From a virus (taxonomy: Duplodnaviria > Heunggongvirae > Uroviricota > Caudoviricetes): a stretch of DNA of 64,000 bases. The stretch lies in the IMG/VR virus record IMGVR_UViG_2568526312_000010; one strand, given 5' to 3'. Below are positions 7,003 through 62,501 of this stretch, in pieces. Below the pieces are notes generated by a model. The model saw only the letters and a program-made list of their open reading frames with translations. It was not told the DNA's origin and did no database searches. Position 1 is the first letter of the stretch, and each line of letters begins with the position of its first letter. The position numbers were made by a program, and so were the translations under genes.

Positions 7003-7476
7003 TCACGGTATACACTGGGTACGGATATATTCCTGTGCTCCTTCCAGTTGCTTCTGCATTGCCATCAGCCGTTCTCTGAGGATGAAATAATCCCGTTCAG
7101 CGGCTTCTGCCAGTCGGGGACCGGTTGCATTATCCACGCCGGAGGTGATGGGGGCTTTACGCAAGGAGCCTGGACAGTTGGCGTTGATGCGCAGGCGCTT
7201 ACGACCAGCGGCAACATCAGCACGCAGAGTTTCATTTTCAGCTCTCGCATCAGCTAATTCCCTCGAGTATCTGGCATCAAGTGCAGCAACATCACGCTGG
7301 CGCTGCTGCATATCAGTAATGGTTGCATTTGCCAGCTCCAGCTCACTGACTTTTTTATCGCGCTGCTCTTTGTAGGTTATGGCGTTATCGCGGTAATGAT
7401 TCAGCCCCAGACTAAGCGCACCACAGACCACCAGCAGAATAACGGTAAACGCGGAAAGCATTCGGTTTATGCTCAC
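7003..7476 (-). CDS. Rz: Rz i-spanin
   Basis: 157 aa with N-terminal TM segment and coiled-coil body, last gene of lysis cassette; contains Rz1 in +1 frame. Confidence 0.8.
   Translation of the reverse strand: MSINRMLSAFTVILLVVCGALSLGLNHYRDNAITYKEQRDKKVSELELANATITDMQQRQRDVAALDARYSRELADARAENETLRADVAAGRKRLRINANCPGSLRKAPITSGVDNATGPRLAEAAERDYFILRERLMAMQKQLEGAQEYIRTQCIP
7065..7250 (-). CDS. Rz1: Rz1 o-spanin lipoprotein (embedded in Rz)
   Basis: [15 protein letters not shown] lipobox then proline-rich PPSPPAW; nested inside Rz. Confidence 0.7.
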   Translation of the reverse strand: MRELKMKLCVLMLPLVVSACASTPTVQAPCVKPPSPPAWIMQPVPDWQKPLNGIISSSENG

Positions 7477-7618
7477 CCCACCAGCCCTGCCGAAGTCAAC
7501 GCCATCCAGGCCATGGAAAGAAAAAGAGCAACCAGCATTAGTGAAAATGAAATGCCGACAAGTACACAGAGGCTCTTCACCAGCGTTATGAGTTTATCTG
7601 ATATCATTAGCCACCCCA

Positions 7619-8188
7619 TCAATCCGCCTTTGTTATTTTCCCTTTGCCTGTATCAGCCAGGACAAAATCAATCAGCATATTCGCTTCATTTACCAGCGTA
7701 CGGATTTTTGATACATGCGCGGCTTTAACCTGTTTCCACTCATTCAGCCCGGTAGCAAACACACTGGCAATGTTTTTATCCCGTTTCATGTCAGCACAAG
7801 CCTGGTTGAGTTCTTCCATCACGCTCATTTTACGGGGATTAACGACAAAACCCTTCGTCCAGTACTCGTAAAGAACATCGTCGCACTCTTCCTGATACCG
7901 GATGACCTTATCGCGGATTTCGGGTTTTACTTTGTTGGGATTAATGGTTTGTAGCCAGCCGGCAAGTTTTCGAAGTGGCATGGACACCATATTGCGTTGT
8001 TTCCCATCCTCAGCAACCATAACGATTTCCGTTATAGTTGACGCAAAACGCTGTCTTAACTTAGCCAACTGTGATTGCCAGGCCAGCCCCATCCCCGCAA
8101 CGACAGGTTTCATGGGAACGTATGGTTCGCCATTATGGTTAACTACATAAAGAGAGTTGCCGTGAAACGGCACGGCCATCATATTCAT
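7619..8188 (-). CDS. antirepressor-like protein (Bro-N / KilA-C-like)
   Basis: 189 aa between endolysin and Rz; N-terminal AVPFHGNSLYVVNHNGEPYVPMKPV resembles Bro-N; has its own 270-bp upstream region. Confidence 0.5.
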   Translation of the reverse strand: MNMMAVPFHGNSLYVVNHNGEPYVPMKPVVAGMGLAWQSQLAKLRQRFASTITEIVMVAEDGKQRNMVSMPLRKLAGWLQTINPNKVKPEIRDKVIRYQEECDDVLYEYWTKGFVVNPRKMSVMEELNQACADMKRDKNIASVFATGLNEWKQVKAAHVSKIRTLVNEANMLIDFVLADTGKGKITKAD

Positions 8189-8297
8189 CGGTTATTTCCT
8201 TTTAGTGATGAACCTTGTCTCACAGGAATCCAGCCCACAGAAAGGCACCGACAGCCAAACCGGTATCCTCAAGGGTCATCCTGAAAGGTTCTGTGTT

Positions 8298-8319
8298 GTG
8301 AGATGCGCGTGAGATGCGC
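8298..8319 (-). repeat. tandem 11-bp direct repeat GTGAGATGCGC x2 upstream of antirepressor gene
   Basis: exact tandem duplication about 110 bp upstream of the ant-like start; possible operator. Confidence 0.5.
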
Positions 8320-8458
8320 AGAAATGACAAAGGCATCATTACGGTGCCTGAGTGTTAAACAACTGTTTTGACTTTATTCACTTACATTTTGCCAATTTGC
8401 AGGATTTCGTGTTATCCGTCCATGTAAGCAAACCTCATTTTTCAGCAAAATATTCTGC

Positions 8459-8992
8459 TTATCTGTCGATTCCCCAGCACGCCAGCGCGCTCTCCTGGTC
8501 ACGACGGGATACCTGACCGTAACAGTTATTTGAGCGAATACGGCAGTCCCTGCCACCGTCCTTAATCCACCAGCGAATCGCTTCGCAGGCACCTTTTCGA
8601 TCTCCTGCATTAATCCGTCTGTAAAACGTCGACGGGAAACACTTACCGGGGCCAATGTTGTACGGACAGAATGACGCGATCCCCGCTTTCTGGGGTTCGG
8701 TCAGCGGCACTCTGATGTTTTTCTCCACCCATGCCAGCGCCTTATCACGCTCAATGGCGTTAACCCGGTCGCATTTTTCCTTCGACAGCTTCATGCCAGG
8801 AATAACAGGCTTACCATCCCCCCGGGTGGCTCCACGGCAGATGGTCCAGATACCCGCACCATCACGGTATGCTGTGGTGTGGTTACCTTCCTTTTCATCC
8901 AGAAACTGGTCGAGGATTTCAGGCGCAGACGCCCCTGCACCAATCAGCGCCAGAACGGCAGCCGACAGGCCGTATCTGATTTTTGCGTTCAT
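8459..8992 (-). CDS. R: SAR endolysin (phage lysozyme, T4-lysozyme-like fold)
   Basis: 177 aa; weakly hydrophobic N-terminal segment YGLSAAVLALIGAGA then E..D..T catalytic spacing (EGNHTTAYRDGAGIWTICRG). Confidence 0.85.
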   Translation of the reverse strand: MNAKIRYGLSAAVLALIGAGASAPEILDQFLDEKEGNHTTAYRDGAGIWTICRGATRGDGKPVIPGMKLSKEKCDRVNAIERDKALAWVEKNIRVPLTEPQKAGIASFCPYNIGPGKCFPSTFYRRINAGDRKGACEAIRWWIKDGGRDCRIRSNNCYGQVSRRDQESALACWGIDR

Positions 8993-9042
8993 GGATATTT
9001 ATCAGGGTTTATCGATTTCAAATCCCTGGATATGTTAAGTCT

Positions 9043-9390
9043 TCAGGCCAGCGGTGGAGTCTTCAGAGAACCCGTAATTATTCCCGGTAGTTTTCCTCTG
9101 TAGGTTATCAACACATCCTGCGCCTCTAAAATTACGGGACGCTTTTCCGGTAACGGACCATCCCCTTCACATAACCCGGCAGCAACATCCATGAAAAACT
9201 GCTTCGCCTGCTTTTTCGCCTCAGCTTCGTAAAACTCCAGCGTGGCACCTTCAGTACGGTCAAGACTAATCGCCACATCTGGCAACAACAGTGACGGATA
9301 CCCACCAATTTCCGGTGCCACAGTAACAGTAATCTTATCCGGGTAATTATTTATCCCTTTAACAACCAGTTCGTATTTTTTCTTCATCAC
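9043..9390 (-). CDS. hypothetical protein within lysis cassette
   Basis: 115-aa ORF between holin and endolysin, identical in both prophages. Confidence 0.45.
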   Translation of the reverse strand: MMKKKYELVVKGINNYPDKITVTVAPEIGGYPSLLLPDVAISLDRTEGATLEFYEAEAKKQAKQFFMDVAAGLCEGDGPLPEKRPVILEAQDVLITYRGKLPGIITGSLKTPPLA

Positions 9391-9391
9391 T

Positions 9392-9598
9392 TTACTCTCC
9401 CCGCGCCGCCTTACGCCGGTCTTCTTTAATCTTGAAATACAGGTTCGTCAGATATGTCAGCAGCCCAAACAGCAGACTCCCCAGCACGCCTATCGCCACC
9501 CACTGGGACGGAGAGACTTTGTCCAGCAGCTGCAGTAACCAGTATCCCGTCCCCACCGCTGACGTGGTGTATGACACACCCGTTGTGATTTTTTCCAT
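9392..9598 (-). CDS. S: class II holin / pinholin (phage 21 S-like)
   Basis: 68 aa, two TM segments and RKAARGE tail, close to recalled S21 sequence. Confidence 0.85.
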
Positions 9599-9854
9599 CT
9601 GATGTATGTCTCCGTCACCGCCGACAGAAAATGAAAGTAAAGAAAAACAAAAAAGCCGCCAGTGTCACCCACTGACGGCCAACGCCGGGAGCCGTGATTA
9701 TGGCATTCAGGCTCTGCTAAAAATGCCAGATAACATTCCGGCCACCCCCTGATTCAGGTTATAAATGACACAATATCTTGACAACATCCGTCACTGTCTG
9801 TCAGAAAATGTACTGCCATATAGAAGCAACATGTGAAGTACATCTATCCTTTTG

Positions 9855-9897
9855 AGCCAGCACCTCTCCACCGAAAGTCAGTGCTGGCTGTTTTTTT
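9855..9897 (+). terminator. rho-independent terminator on plus strand (antisense to late operon)
   Basis: AGCCAGCAC...GTGCTGGCT stem followed by T7 on the plus strand only. Confidence 0.5.
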
Positions 9898-10005
9898 CCT
9901 TAATAAAGCATCTGTAACTGAAACAATCCGCATATTGATAATATATTGACAGGCATCATTGCTGTCTGTGAAAAATAAGTCTCTACAAACATATAAGGCC
10001 TTTTA

Positions 10006-10045
10006 GCCAGCGTCTTCTTTCAGGTCAGTCGCTGGCTCTTTTTTT
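10006..10045 (+). terminator. second plus-strand rho-independent terminator abutting the nanS-p stop
   Basis: AGCCAGCG...CGCTGGCT stem followed by T7 on the plus strand. Confidence 0.5.
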
Positions 10046-10046
10046 A

Positions 10047-11897
10047 TTATGCTGCCGGTGCATTTATCTCCAGCACCAGACTTTCTATCTCAACGCCATA
10101 CGCTGCATTTTTTGTAACATCCGTCAGCGTCAGCGCATTCAGTCCCAGTGTCAGACTGTCTTTTATAACCTGGAATGCCGGGCCAGCCACTCCATTCAGT
10201 TTCGGAGTAACCGTGGCACTGCCGGCGGTGAACACCAGCTCCAGCGTCTGCCAGTCGTTACCGTAATCGCCGAACTCCCCCAGCTTCGTGTTTCCGGCTT
10301 TCCTGTGATGCATCAGATTCACTCTGCCGTCAGTGGTCTGAGTAAAGTACGACATCAGGAACGGATTACCGGTACCCGTCATCGCCACACCATCAGGAAC
10401 GGGAGCATCCGTATACAGATAAATCCCCAGCCCGAACTGATTGTTGGTCAGCGCGCCTGACAGGCGGAACTTACAGGTCAGTCTGCCGCCCTGTGTCAGC
10501 AGGGTAATTGCGTCATCCACCGGATGCGTCAGGGACCAGGTTTTATTGCTCTGCCTGGTGATCTTAAATACACCATCTGACAACTGAATTCCGCCATCCT
10601 TAATGCTCCAGCCCTGCGCAGCAGCCTCTCCGGCTGCCGGCAGCAGGGAGATTGTGCGAACGGACGTATCTGCAGACGGACCCGATGGCGTGTTGCCGCC
10701 GGGCGAGGGTTTGATTTCCGGTGCCTTACCACTGATGAAGGCTGAGGTGCGCCCGGCTGCGTTCAGAATAGCGGTTGCCAGACGCTCCGGAATAATGCTC
10801 CTGCGCGCCCATGAACTGAAATGTGTCGGGCGGTTTGATGATACCTGGTTTCCATTCGTTCTCGATGCCGCACCGTAATATCCTGATGCCGGAATATCCG
10901 GATCTTCTGCCGGCGCGTTAGTGGCGGTATTGACGCCGTTACCGTCTGTCATGAAGGGCACAAAATAAACGCCCTCACTCTCCCTGTTTTTATACCCGCC
11001 GTACACGGTGTCGTACTGGGTAGCGTATGTATTTTTCCAGTAATACGTCGTGTCACCACAAATCCACGGCACATCTGCAGCACTGCCACCATGGCACTGC
11101 GCGTTAAACACGGAGAGGTCAGCACGAAACTGTGCCAGCATGGCTGTAAACAGCGCAGGTTGCTGTGCGTGGGTGGCGGCGCTCATGTCAAACTCTCCCT
11201 GCATCCAGCAGACGGCCAGCAGAACGTTTTTGGGATTTTTCTGCAATGCCGCTTTTGTGCGGGAAATCAGATCCTGATATAACGGCTTGCCCACCCCCCA
11301 GCGTGCCGAATCCTGGCTGGCCCCCGTGGACTCGCTGAATGTCCCCTCCGCGCCCTGGGTAAATGCCGAACCACCACGACAGCATGGTACCAGCAGGATC
11401 CCCGCGTTATTCGGGATATACGGGAGCAGTTTTTTGGCAATATGTAACCCCTGGCCGACACAGCCGTACTGCCCTTTGCTCAGGTCTGCCTTCGGATGAT
11501 TCAGCGTACTCATATCCTGCACATCATGCAGGCAGTGGTCGGCCGGAATAATATCGTTATATCTGCAGGCAGCCCCACCCGGCGTCACTGTACTGCGGCG
11601 CGCCAGCTGTTTAATGCGCGGATCCGGAGCATCGTATGAATCCGGCAGCGGAAGCCCTTCACCGTAAGCCATGGCATTGGACTGCCCGGCCAGTACGATG
11701 ACGTAGTACCAATCCGGCTCAGTTGCACCACTGACCACCACATCACCTTCTGCTGTAATCGCCTGCATCAGGGTATAAGGGGTTATGGCCACCGGACTAC
11801 CAAACGGCTGCCAGCCCTCTTTCAGTTTGTGTGTCAGCTTTTCCGCAAGGTCTGACGGCGACGCCGCCCTGACAACATCATAATGTTTAATCGACAT
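10047..11897 (-). CDS. nanS: prophage sialate O-acetylesterase NanS-p (DUF1737 N-terminal domain plus SGNH-type esterase)
   Basis: 616 aa; GQSNAMAYG esterase motif; position upstream of the holin as in Stx-type phages. Confidence 0.8.
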   Translation of the reverse strand: MSIKHYDVVRAASPSDLAEKLTHKLKEGWQPFGSPVAITPYTLMQAITAEGDVVVSGATEPDWYYVIVLAGQSNAMAYGEGLPLPDSYDAPDPRIKQLARRSTVTPGGAACRYNDIIPADHCLHDVQDMSTLNHPKADLSKGQYGCVGQGLHIAKKLLPYIPNNAGILLVPCCRGGSAFTQGAEGTFSESTGASQDSARWGVGKPLYQDLISRTKAALQKNPKNVLLAVCWMQGEFDMSAATHAQQPALFTAMLAQFRADLSVFNAQCHGGSAADVPWICGDTTYYWKNTYATQYDTVYGGYKNRESEGVYFVPFMTDGNGVNTATNAPAEDPDIPASGYYGAASRTNGNQVSSNRPTHFSSWARRSIIPERLATAILNAAGRTSAFISGKAPEIKPSPGGNTPSGPSADTSVRTISLLPAAGEAAAQGWSIKDGGIQLSDGVFKITRQSNKTWSLTHPVDDAITLLTQGGRLTCKFRLSGALTNNQFGLGIYLYTDAPVPDGVAMTGTGNPFLMSYFTQTTDGRVNLMHHRKAGNTKLGEFGDYGNDWQTLELVFTAGSATVTPKLNGVAGPAFQVIKDSLTLGLNALTLTDVTKNAAYGVEIESLVLEINAPAA

Positions 11898-12374
11898 CGA
11901 ATTTCTCCCGTGTACAGGAACAGAGTTAAAAAGCCGGAACCGGAATCAAATCACAGGATGACCATCTGCCAGTGGCTGGTCGTAAAAAAAAGCCGCGCCA
12001 TGCGCAGCCGGAAATAAAGGGATAACGATGATAGTTTGAGAAAAACAGAAACAACACTTTTGTGGCAAAGCATGGTGCCGGGTGCCTCCCGGTGAATTCA
12101 GTATCAGCACCTGAATCCGCGATTATCCCATATACCTGGTTGCTGATCGCCCCTCCGCACAGGGGGATTCACCATGCAGAAGTGTTTTTAATAAACAGCA
12201 AACAAAAAAATCAAGCATTATGCAGGCTGTTTCTTTTTATCACCGGCCACAGCAATACCACAATGCCGCAGACCAGCACCCCATCCGCCAGCACCGACAT
12301 GATTCTGCTGGTGAAATCCACCATCACCACCAGAAACAGCAGGAGTGCAGCCACAGCCAGGCGCAGTTTTACCG

Positions 12375-12806
12375 TCACAGGTGATTCTCCAGACGAAGAC
12401 CCAGAACACCGGCAATCTCTTCCAGCACCTTGCGCTCTTCCGGCTCAATTTCGCCGTCTGCCTCCGCAATGGCCACCGCCACATCCAGCACATCTTCCGC
12501 TTCACGCGTATCGTGTTTCACATCCTCAATCTCACGTAACGCCGCACGACGACCAGTTTTAAAGTTCGTATCCAGCTGACCGATAATGGTTGCGCTAATC
12601 GCATTAATTTCTGACGTAAACGCGGACAGCGCAGGCTGATTACGCAGTACCTGTTCGATCTTCGCTTTCTCGGATGCCTCACATTCACCATCTGCACAGG
12701 CCACCAGGTATGCGGCGTTAATCACCACCTGTGCCAGATCGCGTTTTTCAAACTTTTTAATTTCCGTTGCCGCTCTGCGGGTTTTCTTTTTGAAGATTCC
12801 AAACAT
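12375..12806 (-). CDS. TerB-like (tellurite-resistance-like) protein
   Basis: ACADGECEASEKAKIEQVL...AIAEADGEIEPEERKVLEEIAGVLG pattern; start taken at ATG 12806 with AAGGA RBS. Confidence 0.65.
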   Translation of the reverse strand: MFGIFKKKTRRAATEIKKFEKRDLAQVVINAAYLVACADGECEASEKAKIEQVLRNQPALSAFTSEINAISATIIGQLDTNFKTGRRAALREIEDVKHDTREAEDVLDVAVAIAEADGEIEPEERKVLEEIAGVLGLRLENHL

Positions 12807-12936
12807 CGTGACGTTCCTTTGGGTGGGTGAGCCAACGCCCGGGAGCGATCTGCCCACAGAGAAAGTCACACTGACCACTCCGTAAGCTCACCCCCGAAAG
12901 GCTCTGTGGTTGGTATGCGCCGGGCGTGGCGCAGAT

Positions 12937-12962
12937 ACAAAAAAGGCCCGCCGAAGCGAGCC
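12937..12962 (-). terminator. rho-independent terminator downstream of tRNA cluster
   Basis: minus strand GGCTCGC-TTCG-GCGGGCC hairpin followed by T6. Confidence 0.55.
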
Positions 12963-12975
12963 TGGAAAATAAGTG

Positions 12976-13052
12976 TGGCGCGTTGTAGTGGAGTCGAACC
13001 ACTGACCGATTGCTTAGAAGGCAATTGCTCTGTCCGGCTGAGCTAACAACGC
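12976..13052 (-). tRNA. tRNA-Arg (anticodon TCT)
   Basis: hand-folded cloverleaf with perfect 7-bp acceptor stem, CTTCTAA anticodon loop, TTCGACT T-loop, CCA end. Confidence 0.8.
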
Positions 13053-13065
13053 AGAATACCGATAA

Positions 13066-13145
13066 TGGACCGCCATCGGGGACCCGGCCCCGCACCAACA
13101 ACCCTGTTATGGTGTCGTCTGCTCTTCCTGATAAGCTAATGGCGG
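13066..13145 (-). pseudogene. degenerate tRNA-like remnant (position of tRNA-Arg(TCG) in prophage 2)
   Basis: acceptor-stem halves conserved but interior replaced; no canonical T-loop or anticodon stem. Confidence 0.4.
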
Positions 13146-13152
13146 TTTGTGA

Positions 13153-13228
13153 TGGTGGCCCTTGCTGGATTTGAACCAGCGACCTGGCGATTATGAGTCG
13201 CTCGCTCTCACCACTGAGCTAAAGGGCC
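13153..13228 (-). tRNA. tRNA-Ile2-like (anticodon CAT)
   Basis: GGCCCTTTAGCTCAGTGGTGAGAGCG...CTCATAATCGC...GGTTCAAATCC...GGGCCACCA, resembles recalled ileX-type tRNA. Confidence 0.8.
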
Positions 13229-13256
13229 GAGCCAAAAAATAATAATCAGATGAAAA

Positions 13257-17371: not shown

Positions 17372-17527
17372 TTACTTCTCAGATTCGTAGTCTACGAAGA
17401 CAGCGACCTCCGTCTGACCGGTTCGGATTCGCACCTCGCAGAGGTCTTTCCTCGTTACCAGTGCCGTCACTATGACGGTTAAACAGATGACGATCAGGGC
17501 GATTAACATCGCCTTTTGCTGCTTCAT
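17372..17527 (-). CDS. hok: Hok/Gef-family membrane toxin (HokD/RelF-like)
   Basis: MKQQKAMLIALIVICLTVIVTALVTRKDLCEVRIRTGQTEVAVF matches recalled Hok family; RBS AAGGAG upstream. Confidence 0.8.
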   Translation of the reverse strand: MKQQKAMLIALIVICLTVIVTALVTRKDLCEVRIRTGQTEVAVFVDYESEK

Positions 17528-17817
17528 AGCCTGCTTCTCCTTGCCTTTCGGCACGTAAGAGGCTAACCTACATGTGTTCAGCATGGATTGAGCCTCAGAT
17601 TAATGTTAAGCGTCTTGCAGGACGCGTAATGTTAACTGGGGCTTTTCTCTATCTGCCGTTGGTGTTCATGCCCGAGGCAGATAGCCTCAAGCACCCGCAG
17701 CAATTCTACTTAACTATCCTTTTCCCGCAAACCGTTTTTATCCCCAGCGGCAAATCGAATACACCACCAGCGCCACCGCCATCGCAATTCCTACCGTTGT
17801 GAATGCTTCAGGCCAGG

Positions 17818-24904: not shown

Positions 24905-24962
24905 TTTCTGGTGACGTTTGGCGGTATCAGTTTTACTCCGTGGCTGCTCTGCCGCCCTTTTT
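24905..24962 (+). ncRNA. dicF: DicF small RNA
   Basis: tttctggtgacgtttggcggtatcagttttactccgtggctgctctgccgcccttttt matches recalled DicF with one mismatch; terminator hairpin plus U-tract; upstream of dicB. Confidence 0.8.
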
Positions 24963-55787: not shown

Positions 55788-56149
55788 CTATTTCTTTATA
55801 TTGCTGAATTTATAAAAACTCACAGACATTAGCTGTATTAATTCCGAATTGAAATAATCAGCCATATAGAATAAAAATAAAGCATAACAATAATAATCTT
55901 CTACCCAATCAGTACATTACTGCTGTGACTCCAACACGGCAGTTTTTTTATTGAACAGATTCCAGTTTCTTCCACCATCGCACCGGACGGGCGACCATGA
56001 GGGGAGAACGCCGCGCTCCGTTTACGCGGTAAACCCCGGTGTGTATCGTTTTTGATTATCCCCGCACACTCTCGCAGAGGAGTCTCCCTGTCGGGCTGCG
56101 GTCTCTGTTAATGCAGGAATACGGCGACGATACGGCGCATCAGCAAAAC

Positions 56150-56617
56150 TTAGTTCAGGCACTGAGTGCGGATATAGTCCTGTGCCCCTTCCAGCTGCTT
56201 CTGCATTGTCATCAACCGTTCTCTGAGGATGAAATAATCCCGTTCAGCGGTGTCTGCCAGTCGGGGGCCGGTTGCATTATCCACGCCGGAGGTGCCGGTG
56301 GCTTCACGCACGGTACCGGAGCAGGTGGCGTTGATCCGCAGGCGCTTACGACCAGCGGCAACATCAGCACGCAGAGTTTCATTTTCAGCTCTCGCATCGG
56401 CTAACTCCCTCGAGTATTTTGCATCGAGCGCAGCAACATCACGCTGGCGCACCTGCATGTCAGTAATGGTGGCATTCGCCTGTTCCAGCTCTCTGGCTTT
56501 TTTATCGCGCTGCGCTTTGTAGGTGAGCGCGTTGTCACGGTAATGGTTTGTTGCCAGCCACAGCGCACCATAGCCAACCGCCAGGACAATAATCACCACA
56601 CACAGAACACGGTTCAT
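56150..56617 (-). CDS. Rz: Rz i-spanin (diverged allele)
   Basis: 155 aa, about 85 percent identical to prophage 1 Rz. Confidence 0.8.
56212..56397 (-). CDS. Rz1: Rz1 o-spanin lipoprotein
   Basis: lipobox LVVSAC, proline-rich, nested in Rz. Confidence 0.7.
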
Positions 56618-56770
56618 CTCTCTTTCACCCCACCAGTCCCGATAACGTCAGGACTCGCCAGGCGGTGGAAAAGAAAATGGCAACCAGCATGACTAAAAAT
56701 GAAATGCCGACAAGTACACAGAGGCTCTTCACCAGCGTTATGAGTTTATCTGATATCATTAGCCACCCCA

Positions 56771-57340
56771 TCAATCCGCCTTTGTTATTTTCCCTTTGCC
56801 TGTATCAGCCAGGACAAAATCAATCAGCATATTCGCTTCATTTACCAGCGTACGGATTTTTGATACATGCGCGGCTTTAACCTGTTTCCACTCATTCAGC
56901 CCGGTAGCAAACACACTGGCAATGTTTTTATCCCGTTTCATGTCAGCACAAGCCTGGTTGAGTTCTTCCATCACGCTCATTTTACGGGGATTAACGACAA
57001 AACCCTTCGTCCAGTACTCGTAAAGAACATCGTCGCACTCTTCCTGATACCGGATGACCTTATCGCGGATTTCGGGTTTTACTTTGTTGGGATTAATGGT
57101 TTGTAGCCAGCCGGCAAGTTTTCGAAGTGGCATGGACACCATATTGCGTTGTTTCCCATCCTCAGCAACCATAACGATTTCCGTTATAGTTGACGCAAAA
57201 CGCTGTCTTAACTTAGCCAACTGTGATTGCCAGGCCAGCCCCATCCCCGCAACGACAGGTTTCATGGGAACGTATGGTTCGCCATTATGGTTAACTACAT
57301 AAAGAGAGTTGCCGTGAAACGGCACGGCCATCATATTCAT
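56771..57340 (-). CDS. antirepressor-like protein (identical to 7619..8188)
   Basis: identical translation. Confidence 0.5.
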   Translation of the reverse strand: MNMMAVPFHGNSLYVVNHNGEPYVPMKPVVAGMGLAWQSQLAKLRQRFASTITEIVMVAEDGKQRNMVSMPLRKLAGWLQTINPNKVKPEIRDKVIRYQEECDDVLYEYWTKGFVVNPRKMSVMEELNQACADMKRDKNIASVFATGLNEWKQVKAAHVSKIRTLVNEANMLIDFVLADTGKGKITKAD

Positions 57341-57610
57341 CGGTTATTTCCTTTTAGTGATGAACCTTGTCTCACAGGAATCCAGCCCACAGAAAGGCAC
57401 CGACAGCCAAACCGGTATCCTCAAGGGTCATCCTGAAAGGTTCTGTGTTGTGAGATGCGCGTGAGATGCGCAGAAATGACAAAGGCATCATTACGGTGCC
57501 TGAGTGTTAAACAACTGTTTTGACTTTATTCACTTACATTTTGCCAATTTGCAGGATTTCGTGTTATCCGTCCATGTAAGCAAACCTCATTTTTCAGCAA
57601 AATATTCTGC

Positions 57611-58144
57611 TTATCTGTCGATTCCCCAGCACGCCAGCGCGCTCTCCTGGTCACGACGGGATACCTGACCGTAACAGTTATTTGAGCGAATACGGCAGTC
57701 CCTGCCACCGTCCTTAATCCACCAGCGAATCGCTTCGCAGGCACCTTTTCGATCTCCTGCATTAATCCGTCTGTAAAACGTCGACGGGAAACACTTACCG
57801 GGGCCAATGTTGTACGGACAGAATGACGCGATCCCCGCTTTCTGGGGTTCGGTCAGCGGCACTCTGATGTTTTTCTCCACCCATGCCAGCGCCTTATCAC
57901 GCTCAATGGCGTTAACCCGGTCGCATTTTTCCTTCGACAGCTTCATGCCAGGAATAACAGGCTTACCATCCCCCCGGGTGGCTCCACGGCAGATGGTCCA
58001 GATACCCGCACCATCACGGTATGCTGTGGTGTGGTTACCTTCCTTTTCATCCAGAAACTGGTCGAGGATTTCAGGCGCAGACGCCCCTGCACCAATCAGC
58101 GCCAGAACGGCAGCCGACAGGCCGTATCTGATTTTTGCGTTCAT
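57611..58144 (-). CDS. R: SAR endolysin (identical copy)
   Basis: identical translation to 8459..8992. Confidence 0.85.
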   Translation of the reverse strand: MNAKIRYGLSAAVLALIGAGASAPEILDQFLDEKEGNHTTAYRDGAGIWTICRGATRGDGKPVIPGMKLSKEKCDRVNAIERDKALAWVEKNIRVPLTEPQKAGIASFCPYNIGPGKCFPSTFYRRINAGDRKGACEAIRWWIKDGGRDCRIRSNNCYGQVSRRDQESALACWGIDR

Positions 58145-58194
58145 GGATATTTATCAGGGTTTATCGATTTCAAATCCCTGGATATGTTAAGTCT

Positions 58195-58542
58195 TCAGGC
58201 CAGCGGTGGAGTCTTCAGAGAACCCGTAATTATTCCCGGTAGTTTTCCTCTGTAGGTTATCAACACATCCTGCGCCTCTAAAATTACGGGACGCTTTTCC
58301 GGTAACGGACCATCCCCTTCACATAACCCGGCAGCAACATCCATGAAAAACTGCTTCGCCTGCTTTTTCGCCTCAGCTTCGTAAAACTCCAGCGTGGCAC
58401 CTTCAGTACGGTCAAGACTAATCGCCACATCTGGCAACAACAGTGACGGATACCCACCAATTTCCGGTGCCACAGTAACAGTAATCTTATCCGGGTAATT
58501 ATTTATCCCTTTAACAACCAGTTCGTATTTTTTCTTCATCAC
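58195..58542 (-). CDS. hypothetical protein within lysis cassette (identical copy)
   Basis: identical translation to 9043..9390. Confidence 0.45.
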   Translation of the reverse strand: MMKKKYELVVKGINNYPDKITVTVAPEIGGYPSLLLPDVAISLDRTEGATLEFYEAEAKKQAKQFFMDVAAGLCEGDGPLPEKRPVILEAQDVLITYRGKLPGIITGSLKTPPLA

Positions 58543-58543
58543 T

Positions 58544-58750
58544 TTACTCTCCCCGCGCCGCCTTACGCCGGTCTTCTTTAATCTTGAAATACAGGTTCGT
58601 CAGATATGTCAGCAGCCCAAACAGCAGACTCCCCAGCACGCCTATCGCCACCCACTGGGACGGAGAGACTTTGTCCAGCAGCTGCAGTAACCAGTATCCC
58701 GTCCCCACCGCTGACGTGGTGTATGACACACCCGTTGTGATTTTTTCCAT
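58544..58750 (-). CDS. S: pinholin S21-like (identical copy)
   Basis: identical translation to 9392..9598. Confidence 0.85.
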
Positions 58751-59006
58751 CTGATGTATGTCTCCGTCACCGCCGACAGAAAATGAAAGTAAAGAAAAAC
58801 AAAAAAGCCGCCAGTGTCACCCACTGACGGCCAACGCCGGGAGCCGTGATTATGGCATTCAGGCTCTGCTAAAAATGCCAGATAACATTCCGGCCACCCC
58901 CTGATTCAGGTTATAAATGACACAATATCTTGACAACATCCGTCACTGTCTGTCAGAAAATGTACTGCCATATAGAAGCAACATGTGAAGTACATCTATC
59001 CTTTTG

Positions 59007-59049
59007 AGCCAGCACCTCTCCACCGAAAGTCAGTGCTGGCTGTTTTTTT
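59007..59049 (+). terminator. plus-strand terminator (copy of 9855..9897)
   Basis: same hairpin plus T7 at offset +49152. Confidence 0.5.
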
Positions 59050-59157
59050 CCTTAATAAAGCATCTGTAACTGAAACAATCCGCATATTGATAATATATTG
59101 ACAGGCATCATTGCTGTCTGTGAAAAATAAGTCTCTACAAACATATAAGGCCTTTTA

Positions 59158-59197
59158 GCCAGCGTCTTCTTTCAGGTCAGTCGCTGGCTCTTTTTTT
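59158..59197 (+). terminator. plus-strand terminator (copy of 10006..10045)
   Basis: same hairpin plus T7. Confidence 0.5.
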
Positions 59198-59198
59198 A

Positions 59199-61049
59199 TT
59201 ATGCTGCCGGTGCATTTATCTCCAGCACCAGACTTTCTATCTCAACGCCATACGCTGCATTTTTTGTAACATCCGTCAGCGTCAGCGCATTCAGTCCCAG
59301 TGTCAGACTGTCTTTTATAACCTGGAATGCCGGGCCAGCCACTCCATTCAGTTTCGGAGTAACCGTGGCACTGCCGGCGGTGAACACCAGCTCCAGCGTC
59401 TGCCAGTCGTTACCGTAATCGCCGAACTCCCCCAGCTTCGTGTTTCCGGCTTTCCTGTGATGCATCAGATTCACTCTGCCGTCAGTGGTCTGAGTAAAGT
59501 ACGACATCAGGAACGGATTACCGGTACCCGTCATCGCCACACCATCAGGAACGGGAGCATCCGTATACAGATAAATCCCCAGCCCGAACTGATTGTTGGT
59601 CAGCGCGCCTGACAGGCGGAACTTACAGGTCAGTCTGCCGCCCTGTGTCAGCAGGGTAATTGCGTCATCCACCGGATGCGTCAGGGACCAGGTTTTATTG
59701 CTCTGCCTGGTGATCTTAAATACACCATCTGACAACTGAATTCCGCCATCCTTAATGCTCCAGCCCTGCGCAGCAGCCTCTCCGGCTGCCGGCAGCAGGG
59801 AGATTGTGCGAACGGACGTATCTGCAGACGGACCCGATGGCGTGTTGCCGCCGGGCGAGGGTTTGATTTCCGGTGCCTTACCACTGATGAAGGCTGAGGT
59901 GCGCCCGGCTGCGTTCAGAATAGCGGTTGCCAGACGCTCCGGAATAATGCTCCTGCGCGCCCATGAACTGAAATGTGTCGGGCGGTTTGATGATACCTGG
60001 TTTCCATTCGTTCTCGATGCCGCACCGTAATATCCTGATGCCGGAATATCCGGATCTTCTGCCGGCGCGTTAGTGGCGGTATTGACGCCGTTACCGTCTG
60101 TCATGAAGGGCACAAAATAAACGCCCTCACTCTCCCTGTTTTTATACCCGCCGTACACGGTGTCGTACTGGGTAGCGTATGTATTTTTCCAGTAATACGT
60201 CGTGTCACCACAAATCCACGGCACATCTGCAGCACTGCCACCATGGCACTGCGCGTTAAACACGGAGAGGTCAGCACGAAACTGTGCCAGCATGGCTGTA
60301 AACAGCGCAGGTTGCTGTGCGTGGGTGGCGGCGCTCATGTCAAACTCTCCCTGCATCCAGCAGACGGCCAGCAGAACGTTTTTGGGATTTTTCTGCAATG
60401 CCGCTTTTGTGCGGGAAATCAGATCCTGATATAACGGCTTGCCCACCCCCCAGCGTGCCGAATCCTGGCTGGCCCCCGTGGACTCGCTGAATGTCCCCTC
60501 CGCGCCCTGGGTAAATGCCGAACCACCACGACAGCATGGTACCAGCAGGATCCCCGCGTTATTCGGGATATACGGGAGCAGTTTTTTGGCAATATGTAAC
60601 CCCTGGCCGACACAGCCGTACTGCCCTTTGCTCAGGTCTGCCTTCGGATGATTCAGCGTACTCATATCCTGCACATCATGCAGGCAGTGGTCGGCCGGAA
60701 TAATATCGTTATATCTGCAGGCAGCCCCACCCGGCGTCACTGTACTGCGGCGCGCCAGCTGTTTAATGCGCGGATCCGGAGCATCGTATGAATCCGGCAG
60801 CGGAAGCCCTTCACCGTAAGCCATGGCATTGGACTGCCCGGCCAGTACGATGACGTAGTACCAATCCGGCTCAGTTGCACCACTGACCACCACATCACCT
60901 TCTGCTGTAATCGCCTGCATCAGGGTATAAGGGGTTATGGCCACCGGACTACCAAACGGCTGCCAGCCCTCTTTCAGTTTGTGTGTCAGCTTTTCCGCAA
61001 GGTCTGACGGCGACGCCGCCCTGACAACATCATAATGTTTAATCGACAT
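59199..61049 (-). CDS. nanS: NanS-p sialate O-acetylesterase (identical copy)
   Basis: 616 aa identical to 10047..11897. Confidence 0.8.
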   Translation of the reverse strand: MSIKHYDVVRAASPSDLAEKLTHKLKEGWQPFGSPVAITPYTLMQAITAEGDVVVSGATEPDWYYVIVLAGQSNAMAYGEGLPLPDSYDAPDPRIKQLARRSTVTPGGAACRYNDIIPADHCLHDVQDMSTLNHPKADLSKGQYGCVGQGLHIAKKLLPYIPNNAGILLVPCCRGGSAFTQGAEGTFSESTGASQDSARWGVGKPLYQDLISRTKAALQKNPKNVLLAVCWMQGEFDMSAATHAQQPALFTAMLAQFRADLSVFNAQCHGGSAADVPWICGDTTYYWKNTYATQYDTVYGGYKNRESEGVYFVPFMTDGNGVNTATNAPAEDPDIPASGYYGAASRTNGNQVSSNRPTHFSSWARRSIIPERLATAILNAAGRTSAFISGKAPEIKPSPGGNTPSGPSADTSVRTISLLPAAGEAAAQGWSIKDGGIQLSDGVFKITRQSNKTWSLTHPVDDAITLLTQGGRLTCKFRLSGALTNNQFGLGIYLYTDAPVPDGVAMTGTGNPFLMSYFTQTTDGRVNLMHHRKAGNTKLGEFGDYGNDWQTLELVFTAGSATVTPKLNGVAGPAFQVIKDSLTLGLNALTLTDVTKNAAYGVEIESLVLEINAPAA

Positions 61050-61527
61050 CGAATTTCTCCCGTGTACAGGAACAGAGTTAAAAAGCCGGAACCGGAATCA
61101 AATCACAGGATGACCATCTGCCAGTGGCTGGTCGTAAAAAAAAGGCCGCGCCATGCGCAGCCGGAAATAAAGGGATAACGATGATAGTTTGAGAAAAACA
61201 GAAATAACACTTTTGTGGCAAAGCATGGTGCCGGGTGCCTCCCGGTGAATTCAGTACCAGCACCTGAATCCGCGATTATCCCATATACCTTCTTGCTGAT
61301 CGCCCCTCCGCACAGGGGGATTCACCATGCAGAAGTGTTTTTAATAAACAGCAAACAAAAAAATCAAGCATTATGCAGGCTGTTTCTTTTTATCACCGGC
61401 CACAGCAATACCACAATGCCGCAGACCAGCACCCCATCCGCCAGCACCGACATGATTCTGCTGGTGAAATCCACCATCACCACCAGAAACAGCAGGAGTG
61501 CAGCCACAGTCAGGCGCAGTTTTACCG

Positions 61528-61989
61528 TCACAGGTGATTCTCCAGACGAAGACCCAGAACACCGGCAATCTCTTCCAGCACCTTGCGCTCTTCCGGCTCA
61601 ATTTCGCCGTCTGCCTCCGCAATGGCCACCGCCACATCCAGCACATCTTCCGCTTCACGCGTATCGTGTTTCACATCCTCGATCTCACGTAACGCCGCAC
61701 GACGACCAGTTTTAAAGTTCGTATCCAGCTGACCGATAATGGTTGCGCTAATCGCATTAATTTCTGACGTAAACGCGGACAGCGCAGGCTGATTACGCAG
61801 TACCTGTTCGATCTTCGCTTTCTCGGATGCCTCACATTCACCATCTGCACAGGCCACCAGGTATGCGGCGTTAATCACCACCTGTGCCAGATCGCGTTTT
61901 TCAAACTTTTTAATTTCCGTTGCCGCTCTGCGGGCTTTTTTTACCAAAAATACCAAACATCGTGACGTTCCTTTGGGTGGGTGAGCCAA
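61528..61989 (-). CDS. TerB-like protein, 5' end frameshifted relative to prophage 1 copy (possible pseudogene or alternative start)
   Basis: conserved ATG at 61960 reads MFGIFGKKSPQSGNGN-stop because of a 1-nt insertion in an A-run; longest ORF uses an upstream ATG. Confidence 0.5.
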   Translation of the reverse strand: MAHPPKGTSRCLVFLVKKARRAATEIKKFEKRDLAQVVINAAYLVACADGECEASEKAKIEQVLRNQPALSAFTSEINAISATIIGQLDTNFKTGRRAALREIEDVKHDTREAEDVLDVAVAIAEADGEIEPEERKVLEEIAGVLGLRLENHL

Positions 61990-62131
61990 CGCCCGGGAGC
62001 GATCTGCCCACAGAGAAAGTCACACTGACCACTCCGTAAGCTCCCCCCCCCGAAAGGCTCTGTGGTTGGTATGTGCCGGGCGTGGCGCAGATACAAAAAA
62101 GGCCCGCAAAAGCGAGCCGGGAAAATAAGTG

Positions 62132-62208
62132 TGGCGCGTTGTACTGGAGTCGAACCAGTGACCGATTGCTTAGAAGGCAATTGCTCTGTCCTGCTGAGCT
62201 AAAAACGC
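62132..62208 (-). tRNA. tRNA-Arg (anticodon TCT), variant allele
   Basis: same cloverleaf as copy 1 with compensatory T-stem change and one acceptor-stem T-C mismatch. Confidence 0.7.
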
Positions 62209-62221
62209 AGAATACCGATAA

Positions 62222-62298
62222 TGGACCGCCATCGGAGACTCGAACCCCGCGAAACCAGCTTCGAAGGCTGGCGTTCTATCCCGATGAGCTAATGGCGG
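62222..62298 (-). tRNA. tRNA-Arg (anticodon TCG)
   Basis: acceptor CCGCCAT/ATGGCGG, anticodon loop CTTCGAA, T-loop TTCGAGT, CCA end. Confidence 0.7.
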
Positions 62299-62305
62299 TA
62301 TGTGA

Positions 62306-62381
62306 TGGTGGCCCTTGCTGGATTTGAACCAGCGGCCTGGCGATTATGAGTCGCTCGCTCTCACCACTGAGCTAAAGGGCC
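62306..62381 (-). tRNA. tRNA-Ile2-like (anticodon CAT)
   Basis: near-identical to the copy at 13153..13228. Confidence 0.8.
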
Positions 62382-62501
62382 GGGCGCAGGATAATAACGT
62401 TACGAAATCAATGTTGCAAGCATTCAAGAATCACCTGGTTAAAAATTACCCTTACTTCCTCCACCAGCGCATTCACCATGTCTATCCGAGATAAGTGGCA
62501 C

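Follow-up and report, generated by a model that had tools for sequence, protein, structure and literature searches.

The Holin-Esterase Gap and Its Second Copy

In the window (the whole 64,000-nucleotide stretch analyzed here, IMG/VR record IMGVR_UViG_2568526312_000010), a gap at 9599-10046 separates two genes that both lie on the minus strand. On one side is a class II holin of the P21 type (9392-9598, minus, 68 aa, PF04971); on the other is a SASA-family sialate esterase of the nanS-p type (10047-11897, minus, 616 aa, PF03629 plus DUF1737 and DUF6645), whose stop codon occupies 10047-10049 (minus). The gap holds two units on the plus strand, each with a promoter-like element and an intrinsic terminator. 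It has no plus-strand open reading frame of 60 aa or more, as a preliminary description of this DNA had stated; the longest frames are 48 and 38 aa, with no Pfam match.

The same description had reported the pair of units a second time, in the other prophage, at 58922-59197. An identical copy of the two-unit locus does lie at 58930-59200 (plus) in the second prophage, at an offset of +49152 and identical across the gap, and both loci belong to a 6.2-kb duplication of the late region (7013-13229 against 56160-62382; 97.7% identity). The gap also aligns nearly base for base with the PP2 locus of enteropathogenic Escherichia coli (EPEC) E2348/69, with phage YYZ-2008, and with phage 434. The gap sequence is held by 698 of 5,426 complete E. 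coli genomes, at a median of five places per genome, and RefSeq carries no annotation under the locus in those 698 genomes. No Rfam 15 model matched the locus at the gathering threshold, and searching with E up to 10 returned chance-level hits only; those at E 1 to 9 (snoRNAs, the Bacillus RNA ncr982, and Hrs10) were accordingly dismissed.

The window contains further RNA features outside the gap. STnc100-family sRNA hits (RF02076) at 12034-12206 (minus, 105 bits) and 61187-61359 (minus, 102 bits) both lie just upstream of the esterase genes on the late-operon strand, which is where Zhu 2026 (bioRxiv 10.64898/2026.05.13.724894) places PasD2, a PasD/STnc100-like sRNA separated from the sRNA PasA by the esterase. 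The tRNA clusters downstream of Q (12979-13228, minus, two hits; 62135-62381, minus, three hits) resemble the ileZ-argN-argO set annotated in Sakai prophages. Rfam hits to DicF (24906-24957, plus, 75 bits), the sok antitoxin RNA (17522-17696, minus, 113 bits), and the ALIL frameshift pseudoknot of an IS3-family element (39799-39915, plus, 121 bits) represent ordinary E. coli prophage and insertion-sequence cargo.

Two Terminators and Two Promoter-Like Elements

Terminator 1 (9855-9897, plus) consists of a 9-bp stem with arms AGCCAGCAC (9855-9863) and GTGCTGGCT (9881-9889), a loop of ~17 nt, and a G followed by U7 (T7 at 9891-9897). Terminator 2 (10005-10045, plus) has an 8-bp stem with arms AGCCAGCG (10005-10012) and CGCTGGCT (10030-10037), followed by a C and U7 (T7 at 10039-10045), and ends one base short of the esterase stop codon. 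Both hairpins had been proposed as plus-strand terminators, and their folds and covariation bear this out: the 9-bp terminator stem is 96% paired over 24 distinct family members, with compensatory changes at three pairs, exemplified by C-G to U-A in the GCCAGUAC variant and by A-U to G-C between terminators 1 and 2. The record of phage 434 (OL657226) annotates both plus-strand terminators. The minus-strand versions of the hairpins also fold, with an A-run before them and no U-run after, and therefore only rightward transcripts would be terminated, as the preliminary description had argued. The fold of the 64-nt unit-2 RNA has z = -3.55, and that of the whole 85-nt unit-1 RNA has z = -1.32.

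Upstream of the hairpins, TTGACA elements are present at 9778 and 9946, again as previously noticed. The putative sigma-70 promoter of unit 1 (9778-9807, plus) combines a -35 TTGACA (9778-9783), a TG (9799-9800), and a weak -10 CAGAAA (9802-9807), and the paralogous promoter-like element of unit 2 (9946-9975, plus) combines TTGACA (9946-9951), TG (9967-9968), and GAAAAA (9970-9975). The shared motif, TTGACA-N10-CTGTCTGT-NANAAA, occurs at four sites in the window against none expected (100 shuffles), and the four sites are both units in both copies of the locus. The -10 elements are weak, with 3/6 matches, and a simple promoter scan called neither putative promoter. Similarity extends over the units as a whole, which align at 85/111 positions (z ~12 versus shuffles), so that the kinship of the two stems perceived earlier holds for the units. 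Judging by this alignment, unit 2 is a diverged tandem paralog of unit 1 with the same promoter layout.

Intrinsic-terminator-like hairpins were also seen on the late-operon strand, at 9654-9680 (minus) and 9725-9742 (minus), between the unit-1 promoter and the holin start. The former has an 11-bp stem with seven G-C pairs and a T-run, and phage 434 annotates a terminator for it. RNA interaction mapping by RIL-seq has recorded a sense-strand RNA here, pasA.E2348C_0689.IGR, in chimeras with PasB. The late-strand element at 9654-9680 may be a Q-antiterminated stop or may give rise to a 3'UTR-derived RNA.

Unit 1 Is PasA

Unit 1 contains, at 9813-9897 (plus), a sequence that is identical at 85/85 positions to the major 85-nt form of PasA from EPEC E2348/69 (NC_011601.1, 743499->743415, minus strand), and the second prophage carries the same exact 85-nt match at 58965-59049 (plus). 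PasA, for pathogenicity-associated sRNA A, was discovered by RIL-seq in prophage PP2 of that strain and confirmed by Northern blot at the expected size (Pearl Mizrahi et al. 2021, Sci Adv, PMC8550237). The Northern probe, GCCAGCACTGACTTTCGGTGGAGAG (PMC8550237), has its target at 9864-9888 in the window. Table S6 of the same study places PasA between E2348C_0688 and E2348C_0689 in the orientation '> < >' and names EcOnc51 and EcOnc52 as its homologues in enterohemorrhagic E. coli (EHEC) (PMC8550237). The layout in the window is that of NC_011601: by Pfam, unit 1 lies between a SASA esterase and a class II holin and runs opposite to both. It also has the 3' intrinsic terminator with its U-tract and the published seed GCCAGCACCU (9856-9865, plus; Fig. 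S5, PMC8550237), which lies inside the 5' arm of terminator 1. A seed buried within a terminator stem is unusual, and we count this against the PasA account. The esterase-PasA/PasC-holin-lysozyme arrangement has since been mapped over ~1,360 genomes (Zhu, Shabalina and Storz 2026, bioRxiv 10.64898/2026.05.13.724894), with YYZ-2008 (Stx1 phage, NC_011356) as the PasA reference phage.

We are therefore highly confident that the gap between the esterase and the class II holin carries the known prophage sRNA gene pasA together with a diverged tandem copy. The two terminator-bounded units are already known as the published PasA, its read-through form, and EcOnc51/52. The preliminary description had suggested prophage-encoded regulatory sRNAs on the plus strand and had proposed comparison with published coordinates and Hfq data; exact matches are found for PasA and, as set out below, for the EcOnc52 peak (78/78 positions), and the identical sequences are represented in RIL-seq, in an hfq-mutant experiment, and in an Hfq-CRAC peak. 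In the hfq mutant, PasA changes by a log2 fold of -2.78 under the activating condition (PMC8550237). Expression and Hfq dependence have thus been demonstrated for the identical E2348/69 sequence, from which we would expect expression in the present strain.

The published 5' end of PasA, 9813, falls 35 nt past the start of the -35 element. Because it lies at this distance from a perfect -35, we read 9813 as a primary start made from the 9778 promoter, which would presumably drive it despite a weak -10 that is preceded by TG; a function for the 9946 element is likewise presumptive. This reading conflicts with the statement that the PasA 5' end results from cleavage of a longer transcript (Zhu 2026, bioRxiv 10.64898/2026.05.13.724894).

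Unit 2: Read-Through Tail, Separate sRNA, or Spare Terminator

The literature regards unit 2 as the tail of a 236-nt PasA isoform, with a single gene at the locus (PMC8550237). This minor isoform (9813-10048, plus; Table S6, 743499->743264, PMC8550237) arises by read-through of terminator 1 to terminator 2. The earlier proposal of short plus-strand RNAs that end at these terminators is supported by published experiments, with this treatment of unit 2 as a refinement. When the read-through isoform is folded in silico, the two terminators exchange partners: each 5' arm pairs with the 3' arm of the other terminator, and one long structure results (-53.1 kcal/mol, z = -1.8). This modeled fold would hide the PasA seed in a manner different from that of the 85-nt form.

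Unit 2 has also been encountered as an Hfq-bound site. EcOnc51 and EcOnc52 were described as Hfq-CRAC sites at Rho-independent terminators in EHEC O157:H7 Sakai (Tree et al. 2014, Mol Cell, PMC4104026, Table S2), and the EcOnc52 peak (Sakai 1181998-1182075, minus) is identical at 78/78 positions to window 9980-10057, with terminator 2 at 10005-10045; the second copy matches at 59132-59209 (plus). The two Sakai loci differ from the one studied here. EcOnc51 (Sp12) covers terminator 1 of a PasA-2-type variant, and the Sp12 PasA copy has a 5' region unlike that of the window, whereas in Sp4 (EcOnc52) an IS629 element stands in place of unit 1.

If transcribed on its own, unit 2 would give an RNA predicted at ~64 nt (9981-10045, plus), corresponding to the EcOnc52 peak and to the RIL-seq entry pasA.E2348C_0688.IGR. 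We put the chance that unit 2 is such a separate sRNA gene, driven from TTGACA 9946 and producing a ~64-nt Hfq-binding RNA with a single-stranded 5' seed CUCUACAAACAUAUAAGG, at slightly below even. The argument for it begins with the promoter layout shared with pasA, including a perfect -35, and with the start of the EcOnc52 peak at 9980, 35 nt past the start of that -35, the same spacing as for PasA. The strongly scoring fold of the ~64-nt RNA consists of a free 23-nt 5' tail and then the terminator. In RIL-seq, the entry has a U-tract of 7, is always in the RNA2 position, and has five partners of its own, including escD (PMC8550237), and the 3' arm of terminator 2 is where one escD chimera maps. 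Unit 2 also stands alone at some loci, among them Sakai Sp4 and 6 IMG/VR loci, and the PasA Northern probe would miss an RNA made from unit 2 alone.

The abundance data can be read in two ways. Chimeric fragments of the unit-2 region relative to PasA numbered 119/4983 (2.4%) under activating and 54/116 (47%) under non-activating conditions (Table S5, PMC8550237), a shift of ~20-fold in the ratio that a fixed read-through fraction does not predict. It supports a separate unit-2 gene, but it could also reflect condition-dependent termination or stability. Standing against separate transcription, moreover, are the reading of the authors who mapped the locus, who saw a PasA isoform, and the existence of read-through RNA: an EHEC CLASH hybrid contains 9957-9981, upstream of the predicted unit-2 start. 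The unit-2-only copy of Sakai Sp4 was considered as proof of an own promoter and rejected, since identical copies in several prophages make the assignment of CRAC reads ambiguous.

A further explanation, which we consider rather unlikely, is that unit 2 has no RNA function and is a back-up terminator, beside a decaying duplicated promoter, that keeps pasA transcription from extending in antisense into the esterase gene. Terminator 2 is well placed for this, immediately before the esterase stop codon, and the 236-nt read-through product ends exactly at it. In single-unit loci (the PasC type and the GCCAGUAC type), the one terminator sits at the same position, and the five RIL-seq partners of unit 2 are few compared with 41 for PasA. 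A decaying promoter does not sit well, however, with a -35 that remains a perfect TTGACA, nor does a lack of RNA function with the few variants of the unit-2 5' tail among the IMG/VR members collected, with Hfq binding, or with an exclusive RNA2 position.

One role for the unit-2 tail was tried and discarded. The ACAAACA in the tail had suggested a GcvB sponge, and the pairing proved no better than that of shuffles: RNAduplex gave -11.1 kcal/mol between the tail and the GcvB R1 seed, which 38% of shuffled seeds equaled or bettered, and the RIL-seq rows examined held no GcvB chimera.

Targets and Proposed Mode of Action

PasA has 41 unique RIL-seq partners, of which 36 are CDS or 5'UTR regions, and 94-100% of its chimeric fragments have it as RNA2, the sRNA position (PMC8550237). 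The partners include ftsB, frr, bfp genes, and the 3' end of the neighboring esterase mRNA (PMC8550237). The target motif CUGNUGCUGG is present in ftsB, frr, bfpI/J, and that esterase mRNA 3' end (PMC8550237), and the seed core CCAGCACC is complementary to the GGUGCUGG of this motif. In the window, the esterase motif lies near the 3' end of the mRNA at ~10066-10076 (minus), with GGUGCUGG at ~10068-10075.

From these data, we propose that in lysogeny a plus-strand RNA would begin at 9813, as has been shown for identical sequences in other strains. Most transcripts would stop at terminator 1 and yield the 85-nt Hfq-associated PasA, and a minority would continue to terminator 2 and yield the 236-nt form. 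PasA would then act in trans as an Hfq-dependent base-pairing sRNA, using a proposed seed within the 5' arm of terminator 1, and unit 2, through its 3' hairpin and U7, would likewise bind Hfq and act as the sRNA partner in chimeras. The RNA ends, the Hfq association, and the partner list were shown in EPEC E2348/69 or EHEC Sakai on identical sequences; the regulatory outcome of PasA on any target is what we infer.

The preliminary description had called the units antisense to the late operon, and with regard to strand this is correct. An antisense role is another matter. In such a role, the RNAs would be cis-antisense regulators that pair with the esterase-holin intercistronic region on induction and affect its processing or the timing of lysis. 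Transcription is convergent, complementarity to a read-through late mRNA would be complete, and the PasA RIL-seq motif has one of its top hits at the 3' end of the esterase mRNA, all of which speak for this model. We nevertheless judge it improbable, because the RNAs run across neither a coding sequence nor a ribosome-binding site: 215 nt lie between the holin start codon (9598) and the PasA 5' end downstream of it, terminator 2 stops at 10045, and even the 236-nt form reaches no more than the last 2 nt of the esterase. The recorded partners, mostly CDS or 5'UTR regions with the core genes ftsB and frr among them, likewise point to action in trans. The esterase site GGUGCUGG itself is not within the stretch antisense to PasA, and this contact, too, is therefore pairing of the trans type. 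By RNAduplex, pairing of whole PasA or whole unit 2 with the esterase 3' end was no different from that of shuffles, and for the esterase contact we relied solely on the short match between the seed and the RIL-seq motif.

Architectures and Distribution of the Family

IMG/VR was scanned with the shared promoter motif, and the loci were sorted by architecture. Two units with 167-169 bp between their TTGACA hexamers were found at 66 loci; a single unit of the PasC type, with the unit-1 promoter and 5' part and a unit-2-type stem abutting the esterase stop codon, at 24; a single unit 1 with terminator 1 at 15; and unit 2 by itself at the 6 loci mentioned above. Outside these four counts, 10 more loci had one unit cut off or could not be classified. 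Across the set, the 5' region of PasA is hypervariable, and the terminator and seed are conserved; the variable 5' region may diversify the targets of different copies. Since the loci were gathered with the promoter motif, a conservation test of the unit-2 promoter in this set is biased, and from the per-region conservation we retained only the finding that the PasA 5' region is hypervariable. Of the representatives of 185,579 species, Escherichia albertii alone has the two-unit locus; the other 16 hits are as many as chance would give for 18 specified bases.

PasC of E2348/69 prophage PP5 and of phage 2B8 (NC_049952) resembles the locus described here in its promoter, its 5' end (CTGCCA...), and its position beside the esterase stop codon. 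PasC loci differ in having a single unit, in which a unit-1-type 5' part precedes a unit-2-type stem (AGCCAGCG/CGCTGGCT) whose loop differs. To judge from sequence, the 5' part of unit 1 has apparently been fused in them to a unit-2-type terminator to make one unit, and the PasC terminator is tied to unit 2 by one IMG/VR variant in which a unit-2 body carries the PasC loop. These forms suggest that a unit may be gained or lost by recombination between the CCTTTT(G)AGCCAGC repeats.

The gap may be a tandem array of two sRNA genes, in which unit 2 would be independently transcribed as a ~64-nt RNA with its own seed and regulation, and PasC-type loci would be one-unit recombinants of the repeats. 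We advance this combined view tentatively, as a possibility that stops short of being probable. Zhu 2026 (bioRxiv 10.64898/2026.05.13.724894) denies that the pasA copies are tandem duplicates; the terms 'promoter', '236', and 'EcOnc' do not occur in its text. On these grounds, the tandem paralogy of the units and the chimeric build of PasC are possibly undescribed, but they are refinements.

Comparison with Other Prophage sRNAs

The anti-sRNAs AgvB and AsxR (RF02702, RF02703) are likewise short, Hfq-binding, prophage-borne RNAs that are convergent with the late operon and combine a variable 5' region with a conserved terminator. They differ in position, being upstream of the esterase, whereas the units described here are downstream. 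Their covariance models gave no hit in 9550-10150, either at the gathering threshold or with E up to 10, and we rejected an identity with AgvB or AsxR, setting AgvB apart on these two grounds; by eye, the stretch at the published AsxR coordinates shows no similarity to the units.

HnrS (EcOnc10/11/12) is also a multicopy prophage sRNA of the late region, 66 nt long and found in EHEC and EPEC (Poudyal et al. 2025, bioRxiv 10.1101/2025.11.27.690950). Its length and its up to nine copies per genome prompted us to consider it for the units, and it was set aside because it occupies a different site in the late region; it differs from the pasA units in both locus and sequence. HnrS itself is present at 55884-55949 (plus) as a 66-nt copy that ends in a hairpin and T7 and contains the fragment ATAACAATAATAATCTTCTACCCAATCAG. 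The second prophage alone was found to carry it, at a point that the duplication does not cover. HnrS is reported to repress hha (bioRxiv 10.1101/2025.11.27.690950).

The closest known system remains PasA of E2348/69, which is among the prophage sRNAs already published as tying horizontally acquired elements to the core and virulence networks of EHEC and EPEC. For annotation, four features in the window, two per prophage, can be labeled pasA and pasA read-through/EcOnc52. The E2348/69 locus and the one described here are alike in the 85-nt sequence, the flanking genes, the opposing orientation, both terminators, and the 236-nt span. They do not differ in sequence; what distinguishes the present case is an O157:H7-like host and a locus that occurs twice in the window.
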